From Micavibrio sp. (GTDB taxonomy: Bacteria; Pseudomonadota; Alphaproteobacteria; UBA9219), in contig DYDA01000004.1 of assembly GCA_020718105.1 (NCBI GenBank), positions 6,124 to 70,123 on the forward strand: a stretch of DNA of 64,000 nt, in the 5' to 3' direction. The stretch's first letter is position 1; every line of letters begins with the position of its first letter. Position numbers and translations under genes: made by a program. Of the stretch, positions 13,159 to 57,990 are shown piece after piece. The notes under the pieces were generated by a model. That model did no database searches. It was not told the origin of the DNA and was given only the letters and a program-made list of their open reading frames with translations.

Positions 13159-13573
13159 AAAGTGGTAGTTGGTGATTTTTTCCCTTGACTCGTGGGGACG
13201 TTTCTGCTATTGACATTGCTAGGCGGAGCTGTGCCTGAAGTTAGAGTTCAGGGGTCAGAGCGTAGAATTCAGAGAAAGAGGGGCTTCGTGGCGGCGCGAG
13301 GCTTTTTTTGTTGGGCAGGGTTCCCCTTTCCTTATTTTTTGTTCCAGAAAATCAACTCTTGAAGTGGAAGGATTATGGTTCTGGTTATAAGGGGGGCGTT
13401 AGTCAAATGTTCATAATCTGTTGATTAAAAAGAAAGGCGGCTTGATGGCTGTTTCTTTTTGTGCGTAACGTGGCGGGGTGGCTCCTGTCTTTGAGGAGAC
13501 TGATTCTTATGGCGTCCCCCTCCTTTCTTGTTTTGAGAAAGTCCCTTAGCAGGGGGCTAACAGAGGCATTCCT

Positions 13574-36428: not shown

Positions 36429-37061
36429 ATGTCGTTATCGGATGCGGTTTCAACGGTTTTATCGCGCAATGTGTTTTATCGTGATGGCTATAGGCTTCTT
36501 GTCCGCATCAGCCTTGTTCAAAGTCTCTCCATTGTTCTGTTGATTGCGGCGATTATCGCCATGCTTCTTTCCATGGAAACGCGGCGCGTTTATTTTGCGA
36601 CAACATCCGATGGGCGTATCATTAACATTGTTCCGCTTAATGAGCCTTATCGTTCACGCGGCGATGTTGTTGCGTGGGCGGCTGGGCGCGCCCAAGAGGT
36701 CATGCGTTTTGGATATAACGACTTTCGTCAAAGACTTCAGGCCTCTTCTGTCAATTTTACGGCGACGGGATGGGAAAGCTTCACAAAGGCTATGCGCGAG
36801 GCGCGTATTCTTGAGGCTATTGAGGCGCGCAAGCTAACGGTTTCCATGCAAATTGAAGCCGCGCCCGAAGTTAAAAAGGCGATGGACAATCAAGGCGTTT
36901 ACACATGGTATCTCCAGTTTCCTGTCTCGATCAAGTTTGATGGCCAAGAAGTCCTCGCGCCTATTCAAGCTACGCTGGTTCTTCAGGTTGTGCGCGTTTC
37001 TACGCTGCAAAGTCCCGAAGGCATCAGTATTGAGCAGTGGATTGCTGTTCCAAGGAGTTAA
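36429..37061 (+). CDS. DotI/IcmL-like (VirB8-fold) T4BSS inner-membrane protein
   Basis: 210 aa (Legionella IcmL is 212 aa). Single N-terminal TM followed by a periplasmic domain. First gene of a cluster collinear with icmL-K-E-G-C-D-J. Confidence 0.5.
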   Translation: MSLSDAVSTVLSRNVFYRDGYRLLVRISLVQSLSIVLLIAAIIAMLLSMETRRVYFATTSDGRIINIVPLNEPYRSRGDVVAWAAGRAQEVMRFGYNDFRQRLQASSVNFTATGWESFTKAMREARILEAIEARKLTVSMQIEAAPEVKKAMDNQGVYTWYLQFPVSIKFDGQEVLAPIQATLVLQVVRVSTLQSPEGISIEQWIAVPRS

Positions 37062-37063
37062 GC

Positions 37064-37834
37064 GTGGGCGATTCATTCTCCAAGACTTCACCAGACGCGG
37101 CTTCTGAGCAGACAGCTTCCCCAAAGGAACCCGTCGCTCTTGGCGTTAAGCGGGATTCATGGCTGTCGGGGTTGACCCATTTTTTTCGGGATGATCCTCT
37201 TGTTGAAACAACACCATCAAATCCAAAAGCAGAAAGACTGCGATTCAAAAAGACGGCAGCAGGCGTACAAAGACGCATGTATATTGTCTTGGGGCTTGTC
37301 TTTCTTAATGTTCTTTTGGCTCCCCTTTTGCGGCCGACTTATCAGCACATAGCCTTTTCTGACGATAAAAAAACAAAGCCTTTGTTTTCGTTGTCAGAGC
37401 CCAATCAAACCGATCAAGCCGTGTTATCATGGGCGGCGACGAGCATTACGGAAATCATGACGTTTGGGTTCGGTGATTTTGATCAACGTATCTTGGCACA
37501 GCGTGCGCGTTTTACGGATGTGGGGTGGCAAAGTTTTCTTGATGCCTTGATAGAACAAAAGCTGCGCGAGGGCTTCAAAATGCGGCAGCTTGTCTTGACA
37601 ACGGTTCCAACGGATTCGCCCGTTATCGTTTCCAAGGGCGAGGCCGTGGATGAAGAATATGATGGAGAGGGGAAGATGTACCAATGGGTCGTTGAAATGC
37701 CCGTTATTATGACCTATACGACGAATAATAATGTTTCCTCGGCCAGCAAGGGCATTGTTCGGCTAACGATTGTCAGGGTGTCTGGGAAAAAAAATCCGAC
37801 AGGGATTGGCATAAAAACGTGGCGATTTGTGTGA
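37064..37834 (+). CDS. DotI/DotJ-family paralog
   Basis: Clear paralogy to the preceding gene (VVAWAAGRAQEVMRFGYNDFRQRL vs VLSWAATSITEIMTFGFGDFDQRI). GTG start at 37064 with AAGGAG RBS 6 nt upstream. The ORF track's earlier ATG at 37037 overlaps the upstream gene. Confidence 0.45.
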   Translation: MGDSFSKTSPDAASEQTASPKEPVALGVKRDSWLSGLTHFFRDDPLVETTPSNPKAERLRFKKTAAGVQRRMYIVLGLVFLNVLLAPLLRPTYQHIAFSDDKKTKPLFSLSEPNQTDQAVLSWAATSITEIMTFGFGDFDQRILAQRARFTDVGWQSFLDALIEQKLREGFKMRQLVLTTVPTDSPVIVSKGEAVDEEYDGEGKMYQWVVEMPVIMTYTTNNNVSSASKGIVRLTIVRVSGKKNPTGIGIKTWRFV

Positions 37835-37996
37835 TAAGAGCAGGGAAAGTGGCGGCGGCTTTTTGTTTTTCTGTGCGGGGAAGGCACGCCTTATTGGAAG
37901 AGAGAATAAAAAAAACATAAACTTTATATTAACACTGATTTGGTGAGAATGGGATAAGGAGCGGTAGAATGATTTACACTGATTCGGGGATGTCCT

Positions 37997-39142
37997 TTGT
38001 TTCGTAAAAACGAACGTATTTCGCTGGCCTCAACCACGCAAAGCGTGGTCGGGGGGCTTGTTTTCGTTGTTGCTTTAAGCGCTTCATCATTGTGGGCGCA
38101 AGATAAGGCCCCCCCTTCTTTGACGATGTCTGTGCGCGCCGCTTTGGCTTCAGCGCAAAAAAGCAGTGGTGAGCCCTCAATTGATGCTGCCTCTAAGGGT
38201 TCAGAAAAAGCGGCGCCTACAACGGGGGGCATTGATTTGCCCGGAGCGCCTCCTTTAAGTGAATCTGTGGCAGATCAGCTCAATCTTGAACAACAGGCCG
38301 AAGAAGCCGCAGCGCGTGCAGCAGAAGAACAGCTTCAAAGAGAAGAAGATCATAATCGTAAATCGTATAAGCGTGCTTCGCAGGGGCTTTTGCCTTTATC
38401 GCCGGATCAAGTTCGTGATTTTATGCGAAAGCTGGAAACAACACAGGAATCGGCTATTCCACCTCATACAGGATCGCCCAAGGGCGAGGTTAAGGTTGTT
38501 GGCGTTTCGTTGGATCCTGGTGGTGAGCCTGCGCAAATTAATTTAGCGGCAGGCTACATTACGACAATTGACATCATTGATATAACAGGAGAGCCGTGGC
38601 CCATTCTTGATGTTGGTGTGGGGGGCAATTTTGAAGTGACCCCGACGCAAGCTGGTTCCCATGTTGTTCGCGTTGTTCCTTTGACGCGTTTTGGAACGGG
38701 CAATTTGTCCATCTTGCTTAAAGGCCTGTCAACGCCGATCATTTTCCGTCTGTCGTCTGGCGGGCCAACTTTTCATATGCGCTTTGATGCGCGTGTGCCC
38801 AGCCTTGGCCCCAACGCCAAGACCCCATTGATCGATCATCGTCGCAAAGGGCCTGTGGCGGGTGACGCTGTGCTTTCTATGATCCTTGAAAATGCGCCAC
38901 CGCCCGATGCCAAAAGACTTAAGGTTGGTGGTGTGGATGCAAGAACGATGGCGTGGCAAATTGGGGAGAGCGTTTATGTTCGTACGCCTCTGGCGCTTTT
39001 ATCACCGGCGTGGAATGCCAGTGCGTCATCGGCGGATGGAATGACGGCTTATGAAATTGGGAACGCTCCTGTTCTCTTAATGTCAGATAATGGCGCCATG
39101 ATACGCGCGCGCCTCATGCGGGAAGACGGCCATGACAAATAA
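37997..39142 (+). CDS. DotH/IcmK-like outer-membrane/periplasmic T4BSS core protein
   Basis: 381 aa (IcmK is 360 aa). Signal peptide ending SLWAQD. Position between DotI-like and DotG-like genes. TTG start in the ORF track. Confidence 0.5.
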   Translation: MFRKNERISLASTTQSVVGGLVFVVALSASSLWAQDKAPPSLTMSVRAALASAQKSSGEPSIDAASKGSEKAAPTTGGIDLPGAPPLSESVADQLNLEQQAEEAAARAAEEQLQREEDHNRKSYKRASQGLLPLSPDQVRDFMRKLETTQESAIPPHTGSPKGEVKVVGVSLDPGGEPAQINLAAGYITTIDIIDITGEPWPILDVGVGGNFEVTPTQAGSHVVRVVPLTRFGTGNLSILLKGLSTPIIFRLSSGGPTFHMRFDARVPSLGPNAKTPLIDHRRKGPVAGDAVLSMILENAPPPDAKRLKVGGVDARTMAWQIGESVYVRTPLALLSPAWNASASSADGMTAYEIGNAPVLLMSDNGAMIRARLMREDGHDK

Positions 39143-40631
39143 TACGGACGAGTTTGATCAGGATCAATTTGACTCCATGGATTCTCGCGAATCCTTTGGG
39201 GAGCCTGCGGAGGCTAAAAAGGGTTTTTTTGAAACGCTTAAGAATAAGCCTATTGTCAAATTGCTTATCATTATGGGTTTCGTCGGCGTTGCCTTGGCGG
39301 GGGCTTTAGGCTCTTTTACCAGCGCACCAGAAGCCCCTGCCTCTAATTTGGCAAAAGCGCCTGCCCTTAATGAGCCGCCGGGTGGATCGGCAACGCCGTT
39401 CTTTAATGAACAAAACGATAAAGCCAATGCGCAACGGGTTGGACAAGCTTTGACGGAAGGTGGAAGCGCGATACCAACGCCGAGCGGGCACGATGTTACC
39501 GATCTGACGGACAAAAGAAAGGATCCTTTGGTCGAGTTTAGGGCTGAGACTGAGCGCCTTAAGCAAGAGATGGCTGCGCAACAAAAACAAAACAACCAAC
39601 AACTTCAGCTTATGCAGCAGCAAATGCAAGTCAGTCAGCGCGGCGGCGGGGCTGAGGATGATTCTTTGGCAAAAGCTATGCAAAAACAAATGCAGCAATT
39701 GATGGAAGGATGGACTCCTGCGCGCGCAAAATTTGTTACAGGAACAACGCCCCCAGTCACAGAAACGCGTTTGCAACAAGAGGCCGCCCTGCAACAAAAG
39801 AACATGACTTCTGCGGGAGAAGTGGCGCCTGTGGCGAAAAAGGCCATCGTGCCAGCGGGAACGGTTAACTATGCCCAGCTTTTAACCGAAGCGAATTCGG
39901 ATGTTCCGGGGCCTATTTTGGCGCAGATATTGTCTGGCCCTCTTTCTGGGGGAAGGGCTATCGGTCAATTTAAGGTTATGAGTGACTATTTGGTTTTGAC
40001 CTTTAGCACGGTGACCCATAAGGGCAAAGAATATGCGATCAATGCCTTGGCTTTAGATCCCGATACGACTTTAGGCGGGATGGCAACAGAGGTTGATCAT
40101 CGCTACTTTACGCGTGTCCTTCTTCCTGCGGCGGGAGCGTTTGCTTCGGCTTTTGGTAAGGCTTTGAGCGAGACGGAGACCGAAACGACGGTTGTTGATG
40201 GAACCGTTATATCGGATCAAGCCAAAAAGGGAACCAAGGAGGCGTTGTACGCGGGGCTTGGCGAGGTCGGCGATACGGTGGCCGAGTTCCTTAAGAACGA
40301 AGCCAACAACACTAAAACGCTGGTTCGCGTTGCGGTTGGCACGCCGATGGGGATCTTTTTCTTGAGCTCTGTTACAGAATCAGGACAAAATCAACAAGGG
40401 GGCTATGGCGATAATTCTGGGGCGCTTAATGGAGCACAGCTGTTAAAGGGCTATCAACAAATGGGAGTCATGGGCGGAACCTCTTCAGGGGGCAACGGGT
40501 CTTATTATCCTTCCCAAGGCTACTCTTCTAATGGGCAATCTTACAGTCAAAGTCAGAAAAACCCCGTCATGAACAGCAAGTTGACGCCAGCCCAGATTCA
40601 AATGCTCAATTCTTTTTCAAGTGGGTATTGA
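39132..40631 (+). CDS. DotG/IcmE-like (VirB10/TrbI-domain) T4BSS core protein
   Basis: N-terminal cytoplasmic tail plus one TM. Gln-rich linker. C-terminal region with VirB10-like beta-barrel pattern (LVRVAVGTPMGIFF). Start overlaps the DotH-like stop. Confidence 0.5.
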   Translation: MTNNTDEFDQDQFDSMDSRESFGEPAEAKKGFFETLKNKPIVKLLIIMGFVGVALAGALGSFTSAPEAPASNLAKAPALNEPPGGSATPFFNEQNDKANAQRVGQALTEGGSAIPTPSGHDVTDLTDKRKDPLVEFRAETERLKQEMAAQQKQNNQQLQLMQQQMQVSQRGGGAEDDSLAKAMQKQMQQLMEGWTPARAKFVTGTTPPVTETRLQQEAALQQKNMTSAGEVAPVAKKAIVPAGTVNYAQLLTEANSDVPGPILAQILSGPLSGGRAIGQFKVMSDYLVLTFSTVTHKGKEYAINALALDPDTTLGGMATEVDHRYFTRVLLPAAGAFASAFGKALSETETETTVVDGTVISDQAKKGTKEALYAGLGEVGDTVAEFLKNEANNTKTLVRVAVGTPMGIFFLSSVTESGQNQQGGYGDNSGALNGAQLLKGYQQMGVMGGTSSGGNGSYYPSQGYSSNGQSYSQSQKNPVMNSKLTPAQIQMLNSFSSGY

Positions 40632-40825
40632 TTTGTGGCAGGGGGCTGTTTTGTTCGTGGTGCGAAACATAAAATAGCTTCAATCTGACCCTAAGATGGT
40701 TTATCGTGAGCTCCTGTTTTTGAAGGGGTCTTCCTTGCTTGCCTGTGTGGGGCGAGGAGGGGGTATCTTAAAGAGTTGGGAAAGCTCTGCGGACTTGCTT
40801 AAGTAGTGTATGAAAGGGATCTGTT

Positions 40826-42103
40826 ATGACGGATAAACCAACAGAAACAGGGGAAGACCTGTCTCTTCAAGATGACTTTTCTCCAAGCGATTCATCAACG
40901 GAAGCATGGCAAGATGCCCTTCCCCCTGAAGATGATTTTCATGATCAGGACGAGGGAGCCGAAGAAATTCTTGATGAAATGGTAGAAGAGGCCACCAAGC
41001 AAGAGGGCGGTGACCCGCCCAAACGTGGACGCGGCGTTTTGATGGGAGCCTTGGGCGTTGGGGCTCTTCTTATCGGAGGCTTGGCTTATCTTCAGTTTGG
41101 CTCTTCGACAAAAGACGACGGGCTAAAGGTGATGCCCGTTTCGAATGTCATGAATATAAAAGAAATTAAGAGCGCCCCTGGTCCTAAAGAGGATCCTTTG
41201 GCTAAAAAAGAGCAACCGCTTGATGCCACAGGCAAGGTTGATATGACCGCTATTTTTCATCAGGCACAAAAGAAGGTGACGACGGGCGGAACGATGGCTC
41301 TTCCCATTAAAGAGGGGGAAAAGCTTCCAACGGAACGCCCAGAGTCCGTTGAGAAAAACACTGAGATTTTATCGTCAAGCGATAATGGGGGCTTGCCGTC
41401 TTTGCCTCCAACGCCTGCTCCCCTTTCTGGGACACAGGCTGTTCAAGAGCTTAAAGTTGAAACGCTTCCTGTCAAAAAAGAGGAAATTAAAGCGCTTTCT
41501 ACGGGGGCGCCGCAAGTCGCTTGGGAAGAACGCATAAACGAAATGACGGCCAAGGTCGAAACCTTAAAAGGAGAACTGGATCGTTCTTTGCAACAGAATG
41601 CACAACTTGTATCGCAAGTGGAAACATTGAAAAAAGCAACGGCTTTGTCACAAGAGGCGGCTTTGCGAGAACAGGTTGCTCAGCTTGAGCAAAAACTGGC
41701 CGCAAAAGACAAAAAACAAGAAAACGCCTCTCTTCTTTTAGAAGGGAAGGGCGAGAATGCCGTTGGTCAGGCCGATGTTGTTTCGGGGGATGAATCTTCC
41801 CCTCCTGCGCCCATGATTGCCTTAGATGGGGTAAAGAAAAAGGAAAAGGCCTCTTCTCAAAAAACACGCACCAAGACGTCAGCAAAAAAAGCAACCAAGA
41901 AAAAAGCGCCACCCGCCCCCTCCTCTTCTTGGGTGCTTCGTGCGGCGACGCCTGATGCGGCTTGGGTTTCTTCTGGTTCAGAAAGCCAAGAATTGCGCCG
42001 TGTCGCTGTAGGGGAAACGCTGCAGGGGCTTGGGAAAGTAAAAGAAATTCGTCAAAATGGTGAAAAGTGGGAGGTTGTCGGAGAAAAAGGAACGCTTCGC
42101 TAG
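40826..42103 (+). CDS. DotF/IcmG-like bitopic coiled-coil protein (tentative)
   Basis: Acidic N-terminus, single TM (GVLMGALGVGALLIGGLAYL), long coiled-coil and Lys-rich region. Occupies the icmG position of the cluster. Confidence 0.35.
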   Translation: MTDKPTETGEDLSLQDDFSPSDSSTEAWQDALPPEDDFHDQDEGAEEILDEMVEEATKQEGGDPPKRGRGVLMGALGVGALLIGGLAYLQFGSSTKDDGLKVMPVSNVMNIKEIKSAPGPKEDPLAKKEQPLDATGKVDMTAIFHQAQKKVTTGGTMALPIKEGEKLPTERPESVEKNTEILSSSDNGGLPSLPPTPAPLSGTQAVQELKVETLPVKKEEIKALSTGAPQVAWEERINEMTAKVETLKGELDRSLQQNAQLVSQVETLKKATALSQEAALREQVAQLEQKLAAKDKKQENASLLLEGKGENAVGQADVVSGDESSPPAPMIALDGVKKKEKASSQKTRTKTSAKKATKKKAPPAPSSSWVLRAATPDAAWVSSGSESQELRRVAVGETLQGLGKVKEIRQNGEKWEVVGEKGTLR

Positions 42104-42132
42104 TCCCTATTCATTGGGCGAATGAGAAAAAA

Positions 42133-42157
42133 GAGGGGGCTTGCGCCCTCTTTTTTT
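42133..42157 (+). terminator. rho-independent terminator candidate after the DotF-like gene
   Basis: GAGGGGGCttgcGCCCTC stem followed by TTTTTTT. Confidence 0.4.
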
Positions 42158-42290
42158 GTCTCGAAATTAAACAGGTTTTTAATTGTTTAAGGCACAATGG
42201 ATATGAGAGAATGCGCTATAAGGCGCTGTTTTTTGAAAAGGTGAAGCGGAAGATGTGGTGTCTCCCCCCCTTTTGTCGCGGAGCAAGAAC

Positions 42291-43235
42291 ATGGGTTTGA
42301 AAATGGATAAAAAATATTCAAAAGGAACTTATTTCTTTCCTTTTTTTGTCGCGCTCTTTTTTCATCCCAGCAGTGTTTGGGCACAAAACACTTTGGGAAC
42401 CCTTCTTTGTAATGCAAAGGATGCGGGGACATCCTATCCCCTCATTCTTAATGCCATCGCCTATATTGCGGGCGCTTTTTTGACGGTGCGTGCCGTTCTT
42501 TTATTTAAAAGACATGCCGAAAATCCAAACCAATCTCAAATCGTTGCGGGGGTGGCGCATGCTGTCGGCGCGGCTTTTCTTCTTTCCTTGCCTCTCTTTG
42601 CGGGCGTTATTCAGGAATCTATTTTAGGAAGTGTTACGGGCACATGGGATGGCGCCTGTACGGAAGGCGGTGTTGTCAGCGCAAGCGCCCTTGATGTCAT
42701 GATGCAAAACCTTGTGACGAATATTCATGGGCCGATGTTTAAATTGCTGTCGATGCTCAGCGTGATCATCGGCCTGACGTTTATTGTAAAGGGATTGTTT
42801 GCCGGTGTTAAAACGGGCACGGACCCGCGCGCCTCTAGCCCCAAGACCATCATTGTCAATTTGGTTATTGGGGCGGTTCTGATTTCAATAGGGGGCGTGC
42901 TGAATGACCTTCTCCTAACGATTTTTGGCGGAACAACGGCTTCTCCCAGCAATATGAGAAACTTTTCTGGCATTGCCTGGTCCACTTTTGTTGGATCGGG
43001 CGTTGATACCATCGCTGCCGATAATACGGTGAAGGCGATTTTGGCCTTTATTCAAATTATTGGGGGCATTGCTTTTCTTCGGGGCTGGCTGATTGTTAAA
43101 GCTGCGGTTGAAGGCGGGGGGCAGGCGACGATCCCTCAAGGTGTTACCCATATCGTTGGGGGCGCGATGGCTGTTAATATCGATGTCATGCTTAAAATCA
43201 TCGATAATACGTTTGGAACGGGGATCATTAATTAG
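42291..43235 (+). CDS. DotE/IcmC-family polytopic membrane protein (tentative)
   Basis: Signal peptide plus at least four TM helices. Shares the YxLILNAIxYIxGAFxxVxAxLxxKRHAENP motif with the next gene, as the IcmC/IcmD paralogs do. Much longer than Legionella IcmC. Confidence 0.35.
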   Translation: MGLKMDKKYSKGTYFFPFFVALFFHPSSVWAQNTLGTLLCNAKDAGTSYPLILNAIAYIAGAFLTVRAVLLFKRHAENPNQSQIVAGVAHAVGAAFLLSLPLFAGVIQESILGSVTGTWDGACTEGGVVSASALDVMMQNLVTNIHGPMFKLLSMLSVIIGLTFIVKGLFAGVKTGTDPRASSPKTIIVNLVIGAVLISIGGVLNDLLLTIFGGTTASPSNMRNFSGIAWSTFVGSGVDTIAADNTVKAILAFIQIIGGIAFLRGWLIVKAAVEGGGQATIPQGVTHIVGGAMAVNIDVMLKIIDNTFGTGIIN

Positions 43236-43440
43236 GGCGTTAATTAAATCCTTGTTAAGAAATACATAGGACAATAAGGGAAAGGACAAGCTTCTAAAAA
43301 CATTGAAAGTAATCAGGAGGCTGTTGATACCGAAAGAAAGTTGATGTAGCCTTACCTTTATGGCAAAGGCAGAATTCAACAAGAACGCAAGACCCTTTTA
43401 CCAAAGGGATAAGGCAACTTTTTATAACCAGGAGGAAACG

Positions 43441-43827
43441 ATGAAAAAAAGCGTATTGATGGGCGAAATGTTCAAGTGGGGCGTTCTTACGGCGATCATT
43501 GCCGTGGCTATGCCAGAGCTGGTGTCGGCACAAACGGGGGTTAATGCTTTGCTCACTGATGTGACCCAAGAGCAGCTGCCTGTGTTCCCCTATATTTTGA
43601 ATGCCGTTTGTTATGTCGGCGGTGCCTTTATGATGGTTTCGGGTGCTTTGAGCCTTAAGAAACATGCGGAAAACCCAACCAGTGAGCCTATGTCTAAGGG
43701 CATTGCGCGTCTTCTTACGGGTGGCGCTATTACGGCCGTTCCGACGCTAACAAAAGTTTTACAAGAAACTGTTTTTACGGCAACCTCTGGGCCTGCCGAC
43801 TACACAGGGTTTACGCCATCTTTTTAA
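43441..43827 (+). CDS. DotP/IcmD-like small membrane protein
   Basis: 128 aa from ATG 43441 with an AGGAGG RBS (IcmD is 132 aa). Signal peptide. Paralogous core PYILNAVCYVGGAFMMVSGALSLKKHAENP. Confidence 0.4.
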   Translation: MKKSVLMGEMFKWGVLTAIIAVAMPELVSAQTGVNALLTDVTQEQLPVFPYILNAVCYVGGAFMMVSGALSLKKHAENPTSEPMSKGIARLLTGGAITAVPTLTKVLQETVFTATSGPADYTGFTPSF

Positions 43828-43839
43828 CAAGAGGGTTTC

Positions 43840-44538
43840 TTGACCTTTCTATCCCTTTCTCTTGGCGTCGGGCAGCGGCTTGACGCCAAGGGGACGGTTT
43901 CAAAGAATAGTGTTCCGTCCAAGGGCCAGTTTGAAAAAACGCTTGGACGCGATTCTTTTTCTTGCCGTTGCTGCGGGTTCACTTCCCCAAAATACCAACG
44001 CGTTCTTTCCGTGAGCGCCCTTTCTTCGGGAAAGGGTGGCGGGGAGGATTTTGTGGCGGTCTGTTCCTTTTGTGAGCTGACGGCAACGCTTGACCGTGCG
44101 GGCCAGACAGCGGCGGGTTATGTGATCTGGTTGCCTGAGCTATCGCAAGGCGATCTCAACCACGTTATGCACGCGCTTTATATTGCGCGCGAAAGCGCCC
44201 ATGCTGAATTATCCAAAGCGGCCTCTCGCACCTTGGATGTTTTGACGGCAAGGCGGGCTGAGGCCAAGAAGCGGCTGGGCACGGATGATCCTTTGATTTT
44301 TGCCACGGCTCTTTTAGAGCAGGTGGAGCCAGCCCATGATGCCGCACGAGCGGCGCGGTTAGAGGGGCTTCGTTTTTTGCCGCTTGATCGTTACTTTGTT
44401 CCCGTTCGCGGCAAAGAAACCAACGTATTTCCGCAAATGCTGGCCTATTGGGCCTCTGCCGAAGGCCCTTACGGAAAGCTGCCTGTTGAGCAGTGGACGG
44501 CGCTGTTTGATGATGTGACCGCAAAAGCTGGCGCGTAA
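43840..44538 (+). CDS. DotN/IcmJ-like Cys-rich cytoplasmic protein (tentative)
   Basis: 232 aa (IcmJ is 208 aa). Cys clusters CRCCGF and CSFCEL. Occupies the icmJ position after the icmC/icmD-like genes. TTG start with AAGAGGG RBS. Confidence 0.35.
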   Translation: MTFLSLSLGVGQRLDAKGTVSKNSVPSKGQFEKTLGRDSFSCRCCGFTSPKYQRVLSVSALSSGKGGGEDFVAVCSFCELTATLDRAGQTAAGYVIWLPELSQGDLNHVMHALYIARESAHAELSKAASRTLDVLTARRAEAKKRLGTDDPLIFATALLEQVEPAHDAARAARLEGLRFLPLDRYFVPVRGKETNVFPQMLAYWASAEGPYGKLPVEQWTALFDDVTAKAGA

Positions 44539-44898: not shown

Positions 44899-46664
<1,766 letters not shown>

Positions 46665-46985
46665 TTATTTCTTGCAGCCGCACTTGCCGGATGCGCACTT
46701 ATCAATCACGCCCATAATGTCGGACTCTTTCATGATAAGCAGGTCTTGGCCGTCAATCTTGACTTCTGTGCCAGACCATTTGCCAAACAGAATGCAGTCG
46801 CCAGCCTTAACGTCCAAGGCCACGATCTTGCCTTGCTCATCCCGCGCACCGGGGCCAACGGCGACGACTTCGCCTTCCATGGGCTTTTCTTTGGCTGTGT
46901 CGGGGATAATAATGCCGCCAGCGGTCTTGGCTTCGCTTTCAAGGCGGCGAACCACGACGCGGTCATGCAGAGGACGAAATTTCAT
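46665..46985 (-). CDS. groES: co-chaperonin GroES with Cys-rich C-terminal extension
   Basis: [29 protein letters not shown] is the canonical GroES sequence. The extra C-terminal tail [12 protein letters not shown] is absent from typical ~95-aa GroES. Confidence 0.9.
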
Positions 46986-47011
46986 CGGTCTTGCTCCTTA
47001 CTAAGTTGTTG

Positions 47012-47029
47012 GCTGAGGCTAAAGCCTCA
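47012..47029 (-). promoter_or_regulatory. perfect hairpin in the groES 5' UTR (not a CIRCE match)
   Basis: CTGAGGCTaaAGCCTCAG lies ~27 nt upstream of the groES ATG, just 5' of the AAGGAG RBS. Confidence 0.3.
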
Positions 47030-47396
47030 GGATGCTCAATCGCTTTTATTTCTTTTTCCGTTTCATATCCGAAATGGAAAAAGAGGGACAGAAGGCAGGC
47101 CTAGGCTTAGCCTTGTTTCTGACTGGACTCATGTAAGCGCTTTGAAGGGCTGTTTCAAGGCTTGTTAATAAATAATTTACGGTTTGCCATCGTGTCCCTA
47201 TTGCCTCCTTCTTTGTTATAAAAAAGAGCGCATCAAGCGAGGCATGTTAACCATGCTGCGGGATCATTCCGTCTATATGGGGGACAGGTCACACGTAGAA
47301 GGCCTCTCCTTTGCGTTAGGATGAGGCTGGGTGCGTTATTTTGAGGGCTCGGCTGGGGTAGTAGCGCAGGAACTTTCCAAGCGCTCTGGGACGCTT

Positions 47397-51270: not shown

Positions 51271-51948
51271 ATGACCCAGTCCTACATCAAACAAGCTTTG
51301 CTTCTGCCTTTTATGGCGTTTCTCTTTGTTCTGGCCAGCGCGGATCTTTCGCCGACAGCCGCACTGAATTTTGATGTGAGCGCGTGGGAGGCTAGAGAAA
51401 AGCTTTCTGATGACCTGCCCCCCTGTCCCGATGAACAGATGGCGGGACGGTTGACGCGAGCCAACAAGGCTCGTTTCGCGACAACGCAGTCGGCGATGCA
51501 GGATGTTTTTAAGGATTCGATTGAAAACGATAAAACAACGCCTAAAAAATATGTGCGCGGCAAGATTTTGGATACCTATTGCCTGAGCGTCTATCTGGAT
51601 TATTTTGGCGCTATTAGTGGCATGCTGTCTGGGTTTTCGGTGATAGAGGCGGCGGTTTCCGCGTTGATTGCGAATATTATTGAGGCAGCGGGGGAATATG
51701 CCTGTAATTATGTTCGAAATGCTGCCAATGAGTTTCTGAATTCTTTTTGTGTCCCGCTTCCGTACCTTAGCTTTTCGGCAAGCTTGCCTACGACGTCTTC
51801 TCATTCGACATGCACTGGGCTGTCCTTAGCCGATGCCATTAAGGTTGAGCCGAGCACGCCCTTGCAAACGACGTATCCCTTGAATGAAGTTTATCAATCA
51901 AGGCCTATGTCTCGTTGGTTGGGGACGGGCAGTACGGGACGCTTTTAA
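51271..51948 (+). CDS. secreted Cys-rich protein, family A (paralog 2, shorter)
   Basis: Signal peptide (MAFLFVLASA). Region VRGKILDTYCLSVYLDYFGAISGMLSGFSVIEAAVSALIANIIEAAGEYACNYV is paralogous to the 49953 gene. Confidence 0.45.
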   Translation: MTQSYIKQALLLPFMAFLFVLASADLSPTAALNFDVSAWEAREKLSDDLPPCPDEQMAGRLTRANKARFATTQSAMQDVFKDSIENDKTTPKKYVRGKILDTYCLSVYLDYFGAISGMLSGFSVIEAAVSALIANIIEAAGEYACNYVRNAANEFLNSFCVPLPYLSFSASLPTTSSHSTCTGLSLADAIKVEPSTPLQTTYPLNEVYQSRPMSRWLGTGSTGRF

Positions 51949-51965
51949 TCAGGGATGGTTTTGAT

Positions 51966-53537
51966 ATGAGCAAGCACAGAACATTGTGGGGCTTTATGAA
52001 GCGGTGGCTTCTGTGCTTGCTTGCCCTTTTTATGTTGGGGACGGCGGTGGCGCCCGCCCCTGTTCACGCGGGGACGTATGTTACTTTTGTGGTGGGTGTA
52101 AGTGAACTTATTACAACCGCGTGGTCTTATATCAAACTGGCGGCGGAATGGGCCAGCAACCTAACGGTTGTTAAAGATGTTATTACTGTGCTGTCGGCTA
52201 TGTACGACTTGTGGACTGAGCTTTTCAAAAATTCGCAGAAAAGGCTTGGGTACGATATTCGTGCCATTTTATATGGGGATATGGTCGCCGCTAAGGTTGA
52301 GGAAAAAATTGCGCAAGCACGCGTTGATGCAGGCGTCCTTAATGCGTTTAAAGGGGTGGCCGTTGGGCAGGCGATGAAAAACGCTGTGCCTAAACATGAA
52401 TATTTATGTAAAAAGATGTTGACTGGTGGAATGAGCGTTTCGACGCAGGATTTTGAAAAAGAGGTTTCGCGCATGGCGGCGGAAGCGATCAATGATCGCT
52501 ATCGTTGCCCTACCTGTGATGGCCGTGGGCCTGACTATATAGGCCTAGAATCAGCGCGGCGTTGTACGCAAGGCTATGGCAACACGCTGGTTGATGGCGC
52601 CAAAACAACCTGTGAAAAGACTTTGGATAATAACGCAAGCTTGGCGGATGCCGATATTTCGCCCATCGATGGCGGGCAGGTTTATGAAATGCCCGCGATG
52701 AGTAGACAGTATTATGACAGTGGTAGCGAGACGGAATGGTGGTGGTATATTTTTGATGATTCTTCTTCTTTTCTTGTTCCTAACCCCAGCACGGATCGAC
52801 AAAAGTTATGGGTGGCGGCATGGGATAATATCTTTTTGCTGGCAGGGCCGCGCCCAACGCCAAAGCACGGTGCAGGTATGAACACCCCCGTTGGCAAAGT
52901 GCAACGTGCCATGTTTAATCATTGTGCGGCCAGTCAAAACGCGCTTGTGAAACAGTGCACGGATTTATTGGCTTATTATACGCGCCCCAATTGCAATCAA
53001 ATAGAAACGTCGGAAACGTCTTGGCTTTGGATGAAAGAGCCGAACTTGTGCAAAGGGCAACAAGAAAAGTGTCTGGCGGCTAAGGATATGATTGATATTG
53101 CGCCATTTAGTGATTGTAAAGAAGGGCTCAGCCCGTATGAGGAGGATCAGATTGACCAACTCCTTTGCAAAAGCTCACAACATTACGTCGATATGGTTCA
53201 GGCGGGCGCGACTTATGAAAAGCTGGAGGAGTCCAGTGATTTATGTGAGTCGTCTTGGATAAAGTGGCGCGCTGCTGTTGATAAAAAACACGCCAACTGT
53301 ACGGCGGCCGTTAATGGCATGCAGTCCTTGGAATCCTGTTGGGCGGCTGTTGATTCAATCGGTGGCGGGCAAGCAGCTCTTAAAGAGGATGGTATGGGAT
53401 TGGTTTCTGATACCTCTCGTGCCCCTAAGGCGGCGCATAGAGAAAAGCTGCACAAAGCGAACTGGCAAAAACCGCGTGAGCAAAGAAAAGCGATTGAATC
53501 ACGGGAAGACGCTTTAAATTATGCGGTGGCTCCATGA
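51966..53537 (+). CDS. secreted Cys-rich protein, family B (paralog 1)
   Basis: Signal peptide MKRWLLCLLALFMLGTAVAPAPVHA. Conserved blocks PKHEYLCKK, DRYRCPTCDGRGPDY, LWVAAWDNIFLLAGPRPTP and NHCAASQNALVKQCTDLLAYYTRPNC. Confidence 0.5.
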   Translation: MSKHRTLWGFMKRWLLCLLALFMLGTAVAPAPVHAGTYVTFVVGVSELITTAWSYIKLAAEWASNLTVVKDVITVLSAMYDLWTELFKNSQKRLGYDIRAILYGDMVAAKVEEKIAQARVDAGVLNAFKGVAVGQAMKNAVPKHEYLCKKMLTGGMSVSTQDFEKEVSRMAAEAINDRYRCPTCDGRGPDYIGLESARRCTQGYGNTLVDGAKTTCEKTLDNNASLADADISPIDGGQVYEMPAMSRQYYDSGSETEWWWYIFDDSSSFLVPNPSTDRQKLWVAAWDNIFLLAGPRPTPKHGAGMNTPVGKVQRAMFNHCAASQNALVKQCTDLLAYYTRPNCNQIETSETSWLWMKEPNLCKGQQEKCLAAKDMIDIAPFSDCKEGLSPYEEDQIDQLLCKSSQHYVDMVQAGATYEKLEESSDLCESSWIKWRAAVDKKHANCTAAVNGMQSLESCWAAVDSIGGGQAALKEDGMGLVSDTSRAPKAAHREKLHKANWQKPREQRKAIESREDALNYAVAP

Positions 53538-54922
53538 AAAAGCTGCAAACCGTTTTTTTAGGGTTTCTTTTCATCTGGTTTCTTGCCGCATGGCCTTCCA
53601 ATGCGCAGGCCGAATGGATTAATCCTGATACGGGAACCACGGAGCTTCAGGGTTCCGCGCCTGAAGGAGAGTCGGCGGGGGAATTTGTAATAAACCCGCT
53701 AAAACTTATCATGAATTTAATTCAGGCGGCGATAGAGCGAGGAAAGGAGGCCTTGGAGATAAGCGGGCTGAAGGGAATCCTTGATGGCGTTGTGACCCTT
53801 TATAAGGGGTTCAACCAAAGGTTTATGGAAATGTACGAAGCTTTTACTGTCAATATGGCTAAAAAAAGCGCAGCGCAGCATCTTTATGCGGCGACGGAAA
53901 TAGAAATAACGCAGGCGGAAGTGGATGCGGCCACAAGCAATGTTTTTTGGAAGGAGGGGATGAATATGGTTCCCCAAGTCCTTTCGCCCAAGAATGAGTA
54001 TTTGTGTAAGAAAGTTTTAGCGCATCAAGCCACGACAACAACGCAGGCCTTTGAAAGAGAAGTGTCGCGTATGGCGGCTGAAGCGATCAGTGATCGCTAT
54101 CGTTGCCCGACTTGCGATGGCCGTGGCCCCGATTATGTCGGCAAGGAACAGGCGCGCCGTTGCAAGCAGGGCTATGGAAACGCCATTGATGGCGCATCGC
54201 TGGGATGCAAAGCCAGTACGGCCAGTGGAAAAAGTTTGGCGGATGCTGACATTGCGCCGATCGATGGTGGGCAGATGTATCAGATGCCTAAAATGGAAAC
54301 CAAAGCTTATGTTGATTCTGTTACGGGCGCGAGCATGACGGTCAGTGTTCCCGCGCCCATCAATGAACAACAGACATTATGGGTTGCGGCTTGGGATAAC
54401 ATCTTTCTTCTTGCGGGGCCGCGTCCGACGCCGTCCCATGGCAAGGGGATGAAAACCCCCGCAGGCAAAGTGCAACGCGCCATGTTTAATCACTGCGTCG
54501 CCAGTGAAAATGCGTTGATCAAACAATGCACGGACTTGTTGGCCTATTACACGCGCCCCAATTGCGCCGAGTCGGGCGATTTATGCGCAGCGCAGCAAAA
54601 GGAATGTTTGGCCGCCACGGGATTTGTTGATCTTGAGCCCTATCAAAACTGTGGGAAAAACGGAAATGTTTCTGACTGGCAGGGATTAAGCCCCTATGAA
54701 ACACAAAAGATCAATCAAGATTTATGTAAAAGCGAACAAAGCAGCAGCAATCTTCTGCATGGCGGGGCAAAATACAAGGATGTGCTTTTAGATACGGTGG
54801 CTCTTTGCGATTTATCGGATCAGGCGTTAAAAGAGTTTGTCGCGCGTAAGCATGAAAATTGTCGCTCAGCAACACAGGGATTGCAAACGCTTCGGTCCTG
54901 TTGGGGTGCTGTTGGGCAATGA
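53534..54922 (+). CDS. secreted Cys-rich protein, family B (paralog 2)
   Basis: ATGA overlap with paralog 1. Signal peptide. Same conserved blocks (PKNEYLCKK, DRYRCPTCDGRGPDY, LWVAAWDNIFLLAGPRPTP). About 17 Cys. Confidence 0.5.
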   Translation: MKKLQTVFLGFLFIWFLAAWPSNAQAEWINPDTGTTELQGSAPEGESAGEFVINPLKLIMNLIQAAIERGKEALEISGLKGILDGVVTLYKGFNQRFMEMYEAFTVNMAKKSAAQHLYAATEIEITQAEVDAATSNVFWKEGMNMVPQVLSPKNEYLCKKVLAHQATTTTQAFEREVSRMAAEAISDRYRCPTCDGRGPDYVGKEQARRCKQGYGNAIDGASLGCKASTASGKSLADADIAPIDGGQMYQMPKMETKAYVDSVTGASMTVSVPAPINEQQTLWVAAWDNIFLLAGPRPTPSHGKGMKTPAGKVQRAMFNHCVASENALIKQCTDLLAYYTRPNCAESGDLCAAQQKECLAATGFVDLEPYQNCGKNGNVSDWQGLSPYETQKINQDLCKSEQSSSNLLHGGAKYKDVLLDTVALCDLSDQALKEFVARKHENCRSATQGLQTLRSCWGAVGQ

Positions 54923-55005
54923 GTGCGGGGATAACACTGGTTGATGGGGGTGGCGACACAAAACGTCGTTCACCACAGAGCCCCTAAAAGGGCAGGAGGA
55001 ATAAA

Positions 55006-56559
55006 ATGATGCGGATCATTAAAAAAACAATGCTGGTGCTTTCTCTGGCCTTTTGTTTGTTAACGGGGGGAAGCCTTGTGGCCCCCGCACCTGTTTATGC
55101 TGGAAGTCCTGTTATTATTGATCCGGCCAATCTTATTGCGACCCTTGCCGAATGGGGTGCGCGCTTTGCCGCCATGGCCAAAAAGCTTGCCGTGATTGGA
55201 GAAATTATATCCGTCATTTCCAACATTTATGAATTGATCATTGAGGGCTTTGGAAAGATGATCAATTTGGTCGATGATGACGCTAAGCTTAATGTGTTGG
55301 GACAAGAAGGGCTTGCTCTAACCAAACAACAATTAGCACAGGTTTGGATCGATAATGATACGTTGAATGCTAAACTTGCGGCAGATATGAAGCTTGCGGC
55401 CGATCATGCTGCCCCTAAAAATGAGTATTTGTGTAAAGCGACCTTAGTTCATCAATTGGCGACGACGACAGAAGACTTTGAACGGGGCGGCTCACGGCTG
55501 GCGCTTAAGGCCATTGAAAGCATGGGGCGTGGCCCGCTTGATGACACCAGTGGCGTGCAATATGCCTTTGATGAAGAAAAATTGAGGTGTGCGGCAGGAT
55601 TCGGGAATGTTCTTGTGGATGGGTATGACGCTTCTTGTGGGGACAGCACAACGGTTGGGGAAGACGCCAAAAGAACCTTTATCGATGCTGATTTAACGCC
55701 GTTTTCGATGGATGGTGCGGTTCCCCTTGAGATGCCGCAGTTTACATCTAAGGTCGTGACGCTTCCTGATGGAAAGGAAGTAACCGTGAGCGTTCCTATC
55801 ATCTCGGCTGACAAACCAAATCAAAAAATGTGGCTTGCTGGGCTTTATCATTGTTTCCAACTGGCTGGGCCTCGCCCGACCCCCGCTTGGGGTGAGGATA
55901 AGATGACGCGTCCCACAGGCCTTGTTGAGCGGGCTCGCTTCGATCATGCCCTTGCCATGCAAAGCGCGATGGTCAAGCCCTGCACCGATTTGTTGGCTTA
56001 TTATACGCGGCCTAATGTGGACGATCCTTCGACGGCATCGCTTATTGGTGAACAACATAAACGCTGTGTTTCGGCAAAGGGTTATGTTCATGAAGATGAC
56101 CTTAAGGAAAAGTTTAGCGATTGCCTATCTCCCAACTTTCGAGGGTTAAGCCCTTATCAAGTGGATTTTTTAAGCCATTTGATGTGTAAAACCGAACAAC
56201 ATCATATCTCTTTGATTCAGGCGGGGGCAACGCAGCCTGAACTTATCAATGATACGATCAAATGTTCTGCGGCATGGAATACGTGGCAGGCCAAAGTGGC
56301 CGCCAAGCAAGGCGCTTTGGCTGATGTGGTGACGGGGATTCAGGGAACGAAAAACAATTGGATGGGCGTTGGCGGCACTATGGCGGGATTGACGCGGCAA
56401 GAGGACAGCGGTGCACATCGTGTTGTTAAAGCGATGAAGCCAAAGGTTCAGCCTATCGTGCCGCAAGAAATCAAAGCTGAGCGAGGTTTGCCTCTTCCTC
56501 AGGCAGGAATCCCTTTTGCGCCGGATGAGGTGGCGTGGCCCATGGCTGTGTCGCAATAA
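55006..56559 (+). CDS. secreted Cys-rich protein, family B (paralog 3, divergent)
   Basis: Signal peptide ending APAPVYAG. Blocks PKNEYLCKATL and MWLAGLYHCFQLAGPRPTP. The zinc-ribbon-like CPTCDG block is degenerate. Confidence 0.45.
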   Translation: MMRIIKKTMLVLSLAFCLLTGGSLVAPAPVYAGSPVIIDPANLIATLAEWGARFAAMAKKLAVIGEIISVISNIYELIIEGFGKMINLVDDDAKLNVLGQEGLALTKQQLAQVWIDNDTLNAKLAADMKLAADHAAPKNEYLCKATLVHQLATTTEDFERGGSRLALKAIESMGRGPLDDTSGVQYAFDEEKLRCAAGFGNVLVDGYDASCGDSTTVGEDAKRTFIDADLTPFSMDGAVPLEMPQFTSKVVTLPDGKEVTVSVPIISADKPNQKMWLAGLYHCFQLAGPRPTPAWGEDKMTRPTGLVERARFDHALAMQSAMVKPCTDLLAYYTRPNVDDPSTASLIGEQHKRCVSAKGYVHEDDLKEKFSDCLSPNFRGLSPYQVDFLSHLMCKTEQHHISLIQAGATQPELINDTIKCSAAWNTWQAKVAAKQGALADVVTGIQGTKNNWMGVGGTMAGLTRQEDSGAHRVVKAMKPKVQPIVPQEIKAERGLPLPQAGIPFAPDEVAWPMAVSQ

Positions 56560-56571
56560 AGGAAAACAGAA

Positions 56572-57990
56572 ATGCTTTTTTGGTGTAAAACAACGCCCTT
56601 GATGCAAGAGGGGGATAAGAAAGCAGGGGGGCTACGAAAAGGCTCTCTTCGTTTTCTCATCGTTTTGACAACGCTGCTTTTCGTTTTTGCCGCCGTGTGG
56701 AATCCACCTTGCGCTTATGCCGTTGATGACGGTGATACGACGAATAGTTCCATTGAAAACGCCATTACAAAATGGGGTGTTTTGCAAGAGATTGCTGCTT
56801 TTCTAGAGGAAAATGAAGCTTGGATATCTATGACAAACGGTCTTACGAACGTCATGAATCTTTTTAAAGATAAGATGCGGGCACTTCGCGCTGCGCGTGG
56901 GCAGGGTGTGATTAAACAATTAACGGCGCAAAGAGTTCAGGCGACGATGACAACGGAGGCATGGAATGCCGTTATTGACCAAAGCGCTAGCAATGCGGAT
57001 TTAGAACAAAAAATGAAGCATGCGGCCGAGCATGTTCTGCCTCCGGCTTCAGAACAATTCCTTTGCAATCTTATTCTGGCGCGGCAAGGCGTGCCCGTTA
57101 TGACCGAGTTTGCGCGCATTATCTCCAAGATGGTGGCCAAGGGCATTGATACCCGTTACCGCAGTAAGGGGAGCGATGGAAACGGTCCTCAATACGCCAT
57201 GGATGCGTGGCAGATTAAATGCGGCAAGTATGGCGAGGATAGGCCGAAAACAGGCAACGCTATTGATGGCGTCCCAGAAGAATGCCGTGCGGAAACAACC
57301 GCGCCCACGATAGGATATGCCGATGGCGATGTGAGTGTGGCCACGTTGAGCCGAGAAAAGGTTTATACTGTGCCGCCTGTTAAAGAAGAGGCAAAAGTGA
57401 TTAATGGAACGGTGGAAACGGTTGCAGACTTTGTTCTCGACAAAGAGAGTGGCTCTTATGAAGCGCATAGGCAGTGGCTTATGGCGCGGCAATACTGTTA
57501 TAATCTGGCGGGGCCACGGCTGACCCCTCCGCGTGACGAAGATTTGGACAGACCCGCTGGAAAGGCCAAGTTTGTTCAGTTTACAAGCTGTCTGTCCCGC
57601 CAAAGCGCCTTTGTAAAACTTTGTGCGGATCGTTTAGGCAAATTAACGCGCCCCGATTGCTCTAATGATGATTTTAAGGAGTTTTGTGACGCTTCTATTC
57701 AGGCGTGTGATGCGGCGCGTGAAGCCCAGATCGTTTTGCCTCCTGAATTTAACAACTGTAAGGATGGGCTAAGCCTTTATCAGGCGGAATATCTTTCAAG
57801 CGCTCTTTGTGGTTCAACGCGTCGCATTCAGGCGGATACCAATGGCGGGGTTCAAGATCACAAAAAAGTCAGCACGCTGCTTATGTGCCAAATCATGCGA
57901 GAATCGTTAGCAAAACAACAGCAGGAAGAAGACAGAACCTTTATAAAAGCTTTACAGGGCATGCAGAATATGAAGGGATGCTGGGAATAA
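56572..57990 (+). CDS. secreted Cys-rich protein, family B (paralog 4, most divergent)
   Basis: Signal peptide (LIVLTTLLFVFAAVWNPPCAYA). Blocks EQFLCNLILARQ, QWLMARQYCYNLAGPRLTP and FVKLCADRLGKLTRPDC. Confidence 0.4.
   Translation: MLFWCKTTPLMQEGDKKAGGLRKGSLRFLIVLTTLLFVFAAVWNPPCAYAVDDGDTTNSSIENAITKWGVLQEIAAFLEENEAWISMTNGLTNVMNLFKDKMRALRAARGQGVIKQLTAQRVQATMTTEAWNAVIDQSASNADLEQKMKHAAEHVLPPASEQFLCNLILARQGVPVMTEFARIISKMVAKGIDTRYRSKGSDGNGPQYAMDAWQIKCGKYGEDRPKTGNAIDGVPEECRAETTAPTIGYADGDVSVATLSREKVYTVPPVKEEAKVINGTVETVADFVLDKESGSYEAHRQWLMARQYCYNLAGPRLTPPRDEDLDRPAGKAKFVQFTSCLSRQSAFVKLCADRLGKLTRPDCSNDDFKEFCDASIQACDAAREAQIVLPPEFNNCKDGLSLYQAEYLSSALCGSTRRIQADTNGGVQDHKKVSTLLMCQIMRESLAKQQQEEDRTFIKALQGMQNMKGCWE

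Follow-up and report, generated by a model that had tools for sequence, protein, structure and literature searches.

The groES gene on a contig from Micavibrio sp. encodes a co-chaperonin whose chain runs past the GroES fold into a short tail of cysteines and lysines. The DNA that we analyzed is a stretch of 64,000 nucleotides (positions 6,124 to 70,123 of contig DYDA01000004.1, assembly GCA_020718105.1), which we call the window. Tails of the same kind occur on many other GroES proteins, and together these proteins are a lineage-wide, so far undescribed form of GroES with a ligand-rich C-terminal tail. We found no published description of cysteine-only GroES tails in the literature, and the databases call these proteins only 'co-chaperone GroES'. 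(An earlier note on this DNA, made from the letters alone, had drawn attention to the tail, and held that the case for it would fail if it were widespread and already annotated. It is indeed widespread, with 63 proteins in two subclades, but its annotation goes no further than the name just given.) Tentatively, we read the tail as a ligand for soft metals.

A cysteine and lysine tail on GroES

The groES coding sequence lies on the minus strand (46665..46985) and consists, in the list of open reading frames (ORFs), of 106 codons and a TAA stop at 46667-46665. Its product is a member of the GroES/Cpn10 family by its domain, its fold, and its operon, as the earlier note had supposed. It matches the Cpn10 domain (PF00166) with E = 9e-37 over residues 2-94 and profile positions 1-93 of 93, it scores 177 bits against the NCBIfam model for co-chaperone GroES (NF001529, cutoff 133), and it exceeds the cutoffs of several NCBIfam GroES models. 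We also built an AlphaFold2 model of the protein from 33 family members. The strands of the model have predicted local distance difference test scores (pLDDT) of 70-86, residues 18-31 score below 50, as expected for the mobile loop, and the model matches crystal and cryo-electron microscopy chains of GroES with a TM-score of about 0.7 (in Foldseek, 1wnr, 1p3h, and 1aon among them). From the Pfam and structure alignments, the canonical core takes up residues 1-94 (46704..46985, minus strand), with the mobile loop at about residues 18-31. The alignments of solved GroES structures to the window protein stop at residues 94-96. Thus, the fold ends near residue 95 and is followed by 10-12 further residues, in good agreement with the end point and the roughly 12 extra residues given in the earlier note.

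We read the tail (D95-K106; 46668..46703, minus strand) codon by codon. The 3' codons on the minus strand are GAT AAG TGC GCA TCC GGC AAG TGC GGC TGC AAG AAA TAA, which give D95, K96, C97, A98, S99, G100, K101, C102, G103, C104, K105, and K106, and then the stop. On re-examination the TAA is genuine and stands after the tail, not before it. The three tail cysteines, all encoded by TGC on the minus strand, are Cys97 (46695..46697), Cys102 (46680..46682, read directly), and Cys104 (46674..46676, also read directly). Their spacing is C-x4-C-x-C, with no vicinal pair, and the last of them leads straight into the terminal Lys105-Lys106 (AAG AAA, 46668..46673, minus strand). Four cysteines had been counted in the earlier note, but the fourth is Cys64 (46794..46796, minus strand), which belongs to the core strand GDCILF. 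In an alignment of 33 sequences from subclade A (the subclade of the window, see below), Cys64 is shared with the nearest relatives only, and a core cysteine is absent from 56 of the 63 Cys-tail proteins. Cys97 is at least 90% conserved in the same alignment; the closest relative (L001; loci have L numbers and database proteins P numbers) has GGC, for glycine, at this codon.

Residues 97-106 of the AlphaFold2 model have a pLDDT below 50 and no secondary structure, so the tail is predicted to be disordered. Cysteine accounts for 1.1% of the residues in the ORF products of the window, and the binomial chance of exactly 3 cysteines in 10 residues at that frequency is about 1.6e-4. None of the other ORFs in the window has a Cys/Lys-type end, and in 223 kb of DNA from the clade no other real ORF has one (only spurious antisense ORFs do). 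Across the window and these 223 kb, the Cys/Lys tail is specific to GroES.

In principle, a false tail could result from an error in sequencing or assembly, from a frameshift, or from a stop in the wrong place, and assembly chimeras do exist among the 'GroES' and 'GroEL' entries of the databases (P0001-P0006, P0122, and P0123). However, two NCBI assemblies and an independent sequencing run contain a protein identical to the window GroES, 17 independent DNA versions of the tail keep the frame and the place of the stop, and the ASGK core shares its reading frame with ancestral tails of the type EGAASGKKAA. Because the identical protein comes from separate datasets and because there are 17 DNA versions, a frameshift, read-through, or assembly artefact is excluded, and we give this explanation practically no weight.

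Distribution, selection, and origin

We gathered the family with protein searches that started from the window GroES and from a divergent relative, and with two DNA pattern scans. The strict scan covered one genome from each of 185,579 species and found GroES ending in ...CKK in only five of them. All five are metagenome-assembled genomes (MAGs): Micavibrio aeruginosavorus, a Bdellovibrionales bacterium, two uncultured Rhodospirillaceae, and an Alphaproteobacteria bacterium. In the looser second scan the match could pass a stop codon; about 12 of its 120 loci have Cys tails, and the rest served as a control sample. In all, the family came to 63 distinct GroES proteins, whose 57 distinct tails have 2-4 cysteines each, so the tail singled out in the earlier note is one of many.

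The tails extend 9-17 residues beyond the core. Three cysteines are the commonest number (33 of the 57 tails), and two or four are found in 12 tails each. The four-Cys tails are arranged as CC-x5-7-CC, for example DCCGGKGKSCCKK. CC occurs in 29 of the 57 tails, CxC in 25, and CxxC in 4, and the span from the first to the last cysteine varies from 2 to 10 residues. The most conserved feature is the KK end, which is present in 53 of the 57. The overall composition is 31% Lys, 24% Cys, 18% Gly, 8% Ala, 7% Ser, and 0.6% His; aromatic and aliphatic residues are absent from the tails, and lysine adjoins half of the cysteines. Cysteine is never the very last residue (0 of 57). Instead, 2 residues come after the last cysteine in 27 tails, 4 in 18, and 5 to 9 in the other 12, and these residues are mostly lysines. 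A prenylation signal (a CaaX box, with Cys at position −4 before aliphatic residues, or the CC or CXC end of Rab proteins) was considered and rejected on the strength of these positions.

At the DNA level, the 17 distinct versions of the tail encode cysteine by TGC (44 times) or TGT (7 times) and lysine by AAG (39) or AAA (26), and they end in TAA (14) or TAG (3) with the frame and the place of the stop kept. The first 95 codons of the window gene and of its closest relative show 18 synonymous differences and no non-synonymous ones. This synonymous variation in the tail and core codons implies that selection acts on the amino acids, and on this codon evidence the tail is kept by selection at the protein level across the clade.

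All 63 Cys-tail proteins are from uncultured alphaproteobacteria that are labelled Micavibrio, Bdellovibrionales, Rhodospirillaceae, or Alphaproteobacteria. Micavibrio is filed under Bdellovibrionales in the NCBI taxonomy, which probably explains the mixed labels. Judged by their sequences, the chaperonins that go with Cys tails are alphaproteobacterial, which bears out what the earlier note had said of the host. The best 120 GroEL relatives, which are at least 81% identical to the window GroEL, are all MAG proteins. The host lineage is uncultured, and presumably predatory or host-associated, and the tail offers a recognizable marker for a poorly classified group whose MAGs are named so inconsistently.

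The 95-residue GroES core was tried for the history of the family and set aside: it is too conserved, and its tree requires 13 parsimony steps. We used the adjacent GroEL instead. In a tree of the first 400 residues of GroEL from 73 loci, all 10 Cys-tail loci fall into one clade, with 2 parsimony steps: the cysteines were gained once and lost once, the loss being in L047 (tail EVSKKK). GroEL identity within the Cys-tail clade goes down to 76%, so the trait is old. The clade is divided into two subclades. Subclade A includes the window, and its tails resemble either the window tail or DCCGGKGKSCCKK, while examples from subclade B are GCCGTCKTKK and CSCGGACKTKK. Nested within subclade B are Cys-less members (P0254, P0257, and P0259) that have the tail SAGGSSKPKK and keep the scaffold. 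As 93-94% identity connects their GroEL with the GroEL of members that do have the Cys tail, the absence of cysteine in them is a secondary loss. From this tree, there have been at least two secondary losses of cysteine in the clade.

The extra length of the protein, which the earlier note had thought noteworthy, turns out to be ordinary: the alphaproteobacterial-type GroES proteins in our searches mostly have 103-105 residues, with Ala/Lys tails such as EQSAAAQKAA, EGAASGKKAA, or EGAAKGKKK. The Cys tail is like these tails in its position, its length (8-12 residues), its background of Gly, Ser, Ala, and Lys, and its ASGK core, which is in frame with tails of the EGAASGKKAA type. Evidently, the Cys tail derives from the Ala/Lys tail of most alphaproteobacterial GroES. 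It is unlike them in that none of the 186 tails of alphaproteobacterial-type GroES outside the Cys family contains a cysteine, and in that these tails mostly end in AA rather than KK. The novelty is therefore the substitution of cysteines into an existing Ala/Lys tail, together with the KK end, and not a new appendage. We know of no function that has been assigned to the Ala/Lys tails. No short Cys-containing GroES tail was found among 148 distant representatives either. A search of 1.84 billion cluster representatives found no Cys tails, but it returned mostly mis-called or chimeric GroES and is uninformative about other phyla. (One protein with a 92% identical core and an Ala/Lys tail, P0033, was considered as a second copy of the gene. 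Its surroundings in the genome are different and its partner GroEL has only 78% identity, so we assign it to another organism.)

Another explanation is that the polybasic end is the functional element, which would contact the acidic outer surface of GroEL, membranes, or nucleic acids, and that the cysteines are incidental small residues. The KK end is, after all, the most constant feature of the family (53 of 57), and Cys-free, Lys-rich tails are common in neighboring lineages (EGAAKGKKK, EGRKAAKK). Nested members swap Cys for Ser or Ala yet keep the length and the KK, and Cys97 is Gly in the closest relative. On the other hand, cysteine is rare in the proteins of the window (1.1%), and no short tail with cysteine is present among the 186 non-Cys GroES tails or the 148 distant representatives. 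Furthermore, 2-4 cysteines persist down to 76% GroEL identity despite synonymous codon turnover, and a cysteine content of 24% would not survive drift. So, we consider it unlikely that the lysines alone matter.

As a side observation from these searches, the top-scoring 'GroES' proteins in the database (138-160 amino acids) and 'GroEL' proteins (about 710 amino acids) are internally duplicated (P0001-P0006, P0008, P0122, P0123, and P0241-P0243) and outscore the true self-match. They have the look of chimeras from metagenome assembly, with related genes fused where their sequences are conserved. None of them is within the 63-protein Cys-tail set, but such entries could mislead automated analyses.

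Metal binding and thiol chemistry

The composition of the tails resembles that of metallothioneins (cysteine next to lysine, with no His and no aromatics), which makes binding of soft metals the most likely function. We propose that the tail binds soft metal ions through its thiolates, with seven exposed tails on each GroES ring; this is our leading explanation, although we hold it with somewhat less than even confidence. The C-terminus of GroES would point radially outward, so that the seven tails of the window protein would hold out a ring of 21 thiolates to the solvent (14-28 for the family as a whole). This ring would be accessible in free GroES and probably also in GroES that is bound to GroEL, and the metals bound could be Zn(II), Cu(I), and perhaps Cd, Hg, or As. 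Neighboring tails may have ligands in common, in which case the number and spacing of the cysteines would be free to vary. The predominance of tails with three cysteines (33 of 57) also means that metal ligands fit better than paired disulfides. An abundant and stress-induced GroES would then also serve the cytosol as a sizeable buffer or donor of metal. The tail would have converged on the role that the His/Cys nickel tail has in Helicobacter HspA, with thiolates as its only ligands. We infer the outward orientation from HspA, whose C-terminal extension projects from the heptamer as seven radial arms, according to small-angle X-ray scattering (PMC5116745).

Several observations weigh against this proposal. 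First, the number of cysteines (2-4) and their spacing vary across the family, and Cys97 is lost in the closest relative, so there is no fixed site within a single tail. Second, the cysteines have been lost in nested members of both subclades (L047; P0254, P0257, and P0259), so whatever function they have is dispensable. Third, there are no metal-homeostasis genes near groESL: its neighbors are TrmL, an O-antigen-ligase-like gene, Dot/Icm-type genes, and unknowns. Fourth, the outward orientation is a presumed one, taken over from the scattering data on HspA and from the general arrangement in GroES structures. Finally, there is an association between histidines in the GroEL tail and cysteines in the GroES tail (see below), which is suggestive, but it holds across loci that share ancestry and are not phylogenetically independent.

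Among known GroES proteins with a metal-binding tail, HspA of Helicobacter pylori is the closest parallel, as the earlier note had recognized. The HspA tail ('domain B') sequesters nickel and serves hydrogenase maturation (PMC4671568), and it has been described as absent outside Helicobacter or from other GroES proteins (PMC4671568, PMC5116745). Like the window protein, HspA is a housekeeping GroES with a flexible C-terminal peptide that contains potential metal ligands. Also, HspA and members of our family have cysteine pairs that flank a loop and are followed by a basic end: CC-x15-CC-HDHKKH in HspA, a pattern that we reconstructed from the residue numbers in PMC5116745, and, for example, CC-x6-CC-KK in the family. 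In contrast, the HspA tail has 27 residues, 8 of them His, and binds two Ni per monomer, whereas the tails of the family have 9-17 residues and 0.6% His. The window tail has 12 residues, as against 27, and has no His, so it lacks the nickel motifs of HspA (HX4DH and HDHKKH; PMC5116745). Nor does it have the ring of four cysteines of HspA, as it has three and no vicinal pair (12 of the 57 tails have four), and its host belongs to a different phylum. The 118-position NCBIfam GroES equivalog NF001535, which we assumed from its length to be the HspA-type model, gives the window protein 83.4 bits (cutoff 215) and aligns only at profile positions 1-95. By these comparisons, the window tail is not homologous to the HspA tail. 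It may work like HspA in outline, with different chemistry.

The tails can also be compared to metallothioneins and to small copper proteins with Cys motifs, such as Cox17 with its KPCCxC motif. They have in common a high cysteine content, CC and CxC motifs, lysine beside cysteine, and Gly, Ser, and Ala as filler, and the window tail, with 3 cysteines in 10 residues and no aromatics, conforms to this composition. Unlike metallothioneins, the tails are appendages of 10-12 residues with 2-4 cysteines per chain, so any metal cluster would need several tails. Within the chaperonin system, GroEL1 of Mycobacterium tuberculosis has a His-rich C-terminal tail that binds Cu (bioRxiv 10.1101/766162; PMC10170517). 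GroEL1 is another case of a C-terminal tail turned into a metal-binding peptide, and the GroEL of our clade has histidines in its tail as well. However, the GroEL1 tail is on GroEL, it uses His, and it belongs to a non-essential paralogue rather than to the main operon. In the plant zinc pump HMA4, di-Cys motifs in the C-terminal extension give nanomolar Zn affinity (PMC6255694). HMA4 is like the Cys tails in having repeated CC motifs in a disordered C-terminal extension. It is unlike them in that it is a membrane ATPase of eukaryotes, its extension is much longer, and the sequences are unrelated.

A second possibility for the cysteines is that they have a redox role, as an exposed sensor, a switch, or a sacrificial thiol buffer. 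Oxidative or chlorine stress would lead to disulfides within or between tails, which might give a vicinal-disulfide 'lasso' like that of HspA or cross-link the heptamer. The ring might be stabilized or its cycling with GroEL altered, and the reduced tails might hold zinc, as Hsp33 does. Lysine beside cysteine lowers the pKa of the thiol and makes it reactive. Also, chaperones with Cys-based redox switches exist: Hsp33 is one, and Ruc of M. tuberculosis is reportedly another (PMC7448276). A stress-induced gene would suit such a role, and groES has a candidate heat-shock promoter (see below). Furthermore, the 12 tails with four cysteines have the CC-x5-7-CC arrangement, and the four cysteines of HspA form the disulfides C94-C111 and C95-C112, which shape its tail (PMC5116745). 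However, the commonest cysteine count is odd (three, in 33 of 57), which leaves one thiol unpaired, the bacterial cytosol is reducing, and the classic CxxC motif is rare (4 of 57) and the spacing is not conserved. Overall, a redox role seems to us rather improbable. The cysteines could also serve both metal binding and redox sensing.

We also considered a zinc-thiolate switch of the Hsp33 type, which has four invariant cysteines in a fixed CxC...CxxC spacing. We rejected it, as the tails have 2-4 cysteines that span 2-10 residues, and CxxC is found in only 4 of 57.

In a broader form of the metal-binding proposal, the main co-chaperonin of this clade would have evolved independently into a metal buffer or metallochaperone of the cytosol that is induced by heat shock and handles Cu(I) or Zn, and the histidines of the GroEL tail and a hairpin that could raise GroES over GroEL (both described below) would be parts of the same adaptation. 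We find this conceivable but doubtful. If it is true, then a metal tail on GroES, which is known only from Helicobacter, is a recurrent evolutionary strategy. Among characterized GroES proteins, only HspA has a ligand-rich tail. This tail has repeatedly been described as unique, and it matters in medicine (nickel supply, the action of bismuth, and immune signaling). A second tail that is unrelated and chemically different would make a metal or redox peptide on the co-chaperonin a repeatable evolutionary solution, and this protein of 106 residues, small and easily expressed, would be a simple model for how the abundance of a chaperonin is exploited in metal or thiol homeostasis.

The groESL operon and its neighbors

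A Shine-Dalgarno sequence (AAGGAG; 46994..46999, minus strand) is located 8 nt upstream of the ATG of groES, and the start region ...TAAGGAGCAAGACCG-ATG is common to L001, L003, L005, and L126. Upstream of groES (47131..47159, minus strand) there is a candidate sigma-32 (RpoH)-type promoter, CTTGAAA-N15-CTTACAT, which presumably fits the alphaproteobacterial RpoH consensus. Of the 19 clade loci with enough upstream sequence, 16 have a similar motif (CTTGAAA, a gap of 14-20 nt, and CYYAY) before groES. We found no sigma-70-like promoter in the vicinity of the operon, no CIRCE element in the window, and no Rfam family anywhere in it. The groEL gene (549 amino acids; 44899..46548, minus strand) is 116 nt downstream of groES on the same strand. 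Taken at face value, the arrangement is that of a canonical heat-shock groESL operon with a candidate promoter, and not obviously that of a specialized paralogue.

The leader varies within the clade. A near-perfect CIRCE (TTAGCACTC-N9-GAGTGCTAA) is located just after the sigma-32-type promoter in L002, L049/L104, L066/L128, and L102. It has been lost from the window (46986-47200), L001, and L126, where the leader keeps a different small hairpin (CTGAGGCTTTAGCCTCAG). Apparently, then, heat-shock control has been rewired within the clade.

The spacer between groES and groEL (46549-46664) is unusual as well. Right after the groES stop there is a hairpin whose arms are made of 7-nt repeats, followed by a T-run (46579..46664, minus strand; RNA folding energy −34.7 kcal/mol, z = −3.5). 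Tandem Repeats Finder (TRF) reports period-7 arrays at 46584-46606 and 46631-46663. The spacer has 98-139 nt in ten loci (the window, L001, L002, L003, L004, L005, L043, L102, L117, and L126), whereas 85 other loci of the alphaproteobacterial type have a median spacer of about 25 nt. Most loci of subclade B have short spacers, with L004 as the sole exception. In the closest relative the hairpin is stronger (−51 kcal/mol, z = −10). The heptads of the arms are GATCAGG/AATCAGA in the window and GCATTTA in the closest relative, so the architecture of the hairpin is kept between species while the sequence of the unit differs. The hairpin and T-run look like a leaky terminator or a 3' stabilizer, which could uncouple the levels of groES and groEL. 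A second run of heptads (GTTAGA GTTCAGG GGTCAGA GCGTAGA ATTCAGA) lies on the plus strand at 13236-13275, between an ORF that ends at 13158 and an ORF that starts at 13574, and no inverted partner is apparent there. The heptads may belong to a small family of dispersed elements and not be specific to groESL.

In the clade, GroEL has 1-3 histidines just before its GGM repeats. The window has GGHDHGD (within 44899-44985), and L043, L126, L001, L003, L005, L104, and L129 have tail histidines as well, in forms such as HGGHGD, HAHGG, and GGHGG. Histidine is present in the GroEL tail at 8 of 12 Cys-tail loci but at only 1 of 54 others, and that sole exception is L047, the member that has lost its cysteines. 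Among the 120 closest GroEL relatives (P0121-P0240), 56 have histidine in the tail.

A cysteine of GroEL that might pair with the GroES tail was also sought, and the candidate was Cys29 (codon at about 46462-46464, minus strand), which is found in 7 of 11 clade members and in none of 62 other GroELs and is the sole clade-specific cysteine in GroEL. We rejected it because it is in the equatorial nucleotide-binding segment, which we judged to be out of reach. It aligns with V29 of E. coli GroEL, beside the nucleotide-binding TLGP loop. Cys29 is probably buried and unrelated to the GroES tail.

Upstream of groESL are TrmL and an O-antigen-ligase-like gene, and downstream are genes for a Dot/Icm-type type IVB secretion system. 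The synteny of groESL with the secretion genes is kept only in close relatives (L126) and is absent in L128 and L134. This arrangement raises the possibility that the tail is a signal for export or moonlighting: it might mark GroES for the adjacent type IVB system, or it might be S-acylated in a eukaryotic host and so anchor the protein to membranes. Type IVB genes (DotH/IcmK, TrbI/DotG-like, and IcmJ/DotN-like) flank groESL in both the window and L126, the signals for type IV secretion are C-terminal and some are positively charged, and clusters of cysteines beside basic residues are typical of eukaryotic palmitoylation sites. However, L128 and L134, which lack the synteny, do have the tail. 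There is no CaaX box, and the last cysteine is at position −3 or −5 with lysine after it. Dot/Icm signals are rich in Glu and hydrophobic, and the tail has no such features. Also, there is no sign that these bacteria live in eukaryotes, and GroES is needed in the cytosol. We consider an export signal very unlikely.

The Dot/Icm-type genes span 36429-44538 of the window. They include DotH/IcmK (37997-39142), a TrbI/DotG-like gene (39132-40631), weak matches below cutoff to TraQ (42255-43235) and IcmJ/DotN (43840-44538), and two DotI/IcmL genes (36429-37834) that we assigned by synteny with L126. A TraG/TrwB-like coupling protein is encoded elsewhere in the window (18607-21036). A type IVB set is unexpected in a lineage that is labelled as Micavibrio-like bacterial predators, and it hints at injection into a host or prey.

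Finally, four tandem genes on the plus strand (51915-57990) encode Cys-rich proteins of 462-540 residues with 10-16 cysteines each. Two of these proteins were scanned and gave no matches (one against Pfam and NCBIfam, the other against Pfam only). The tandem genes are also present in L126 and L130. The first two of the proteins, when compared, have N-termini that resemble signal peptides. The proteins are paralogues (pairwise identities of 35% and 28%, with E = 3e-82 and 4e-42) and have the motifs RYRCPTCDGRGPDY and LAGPRPTP in common.

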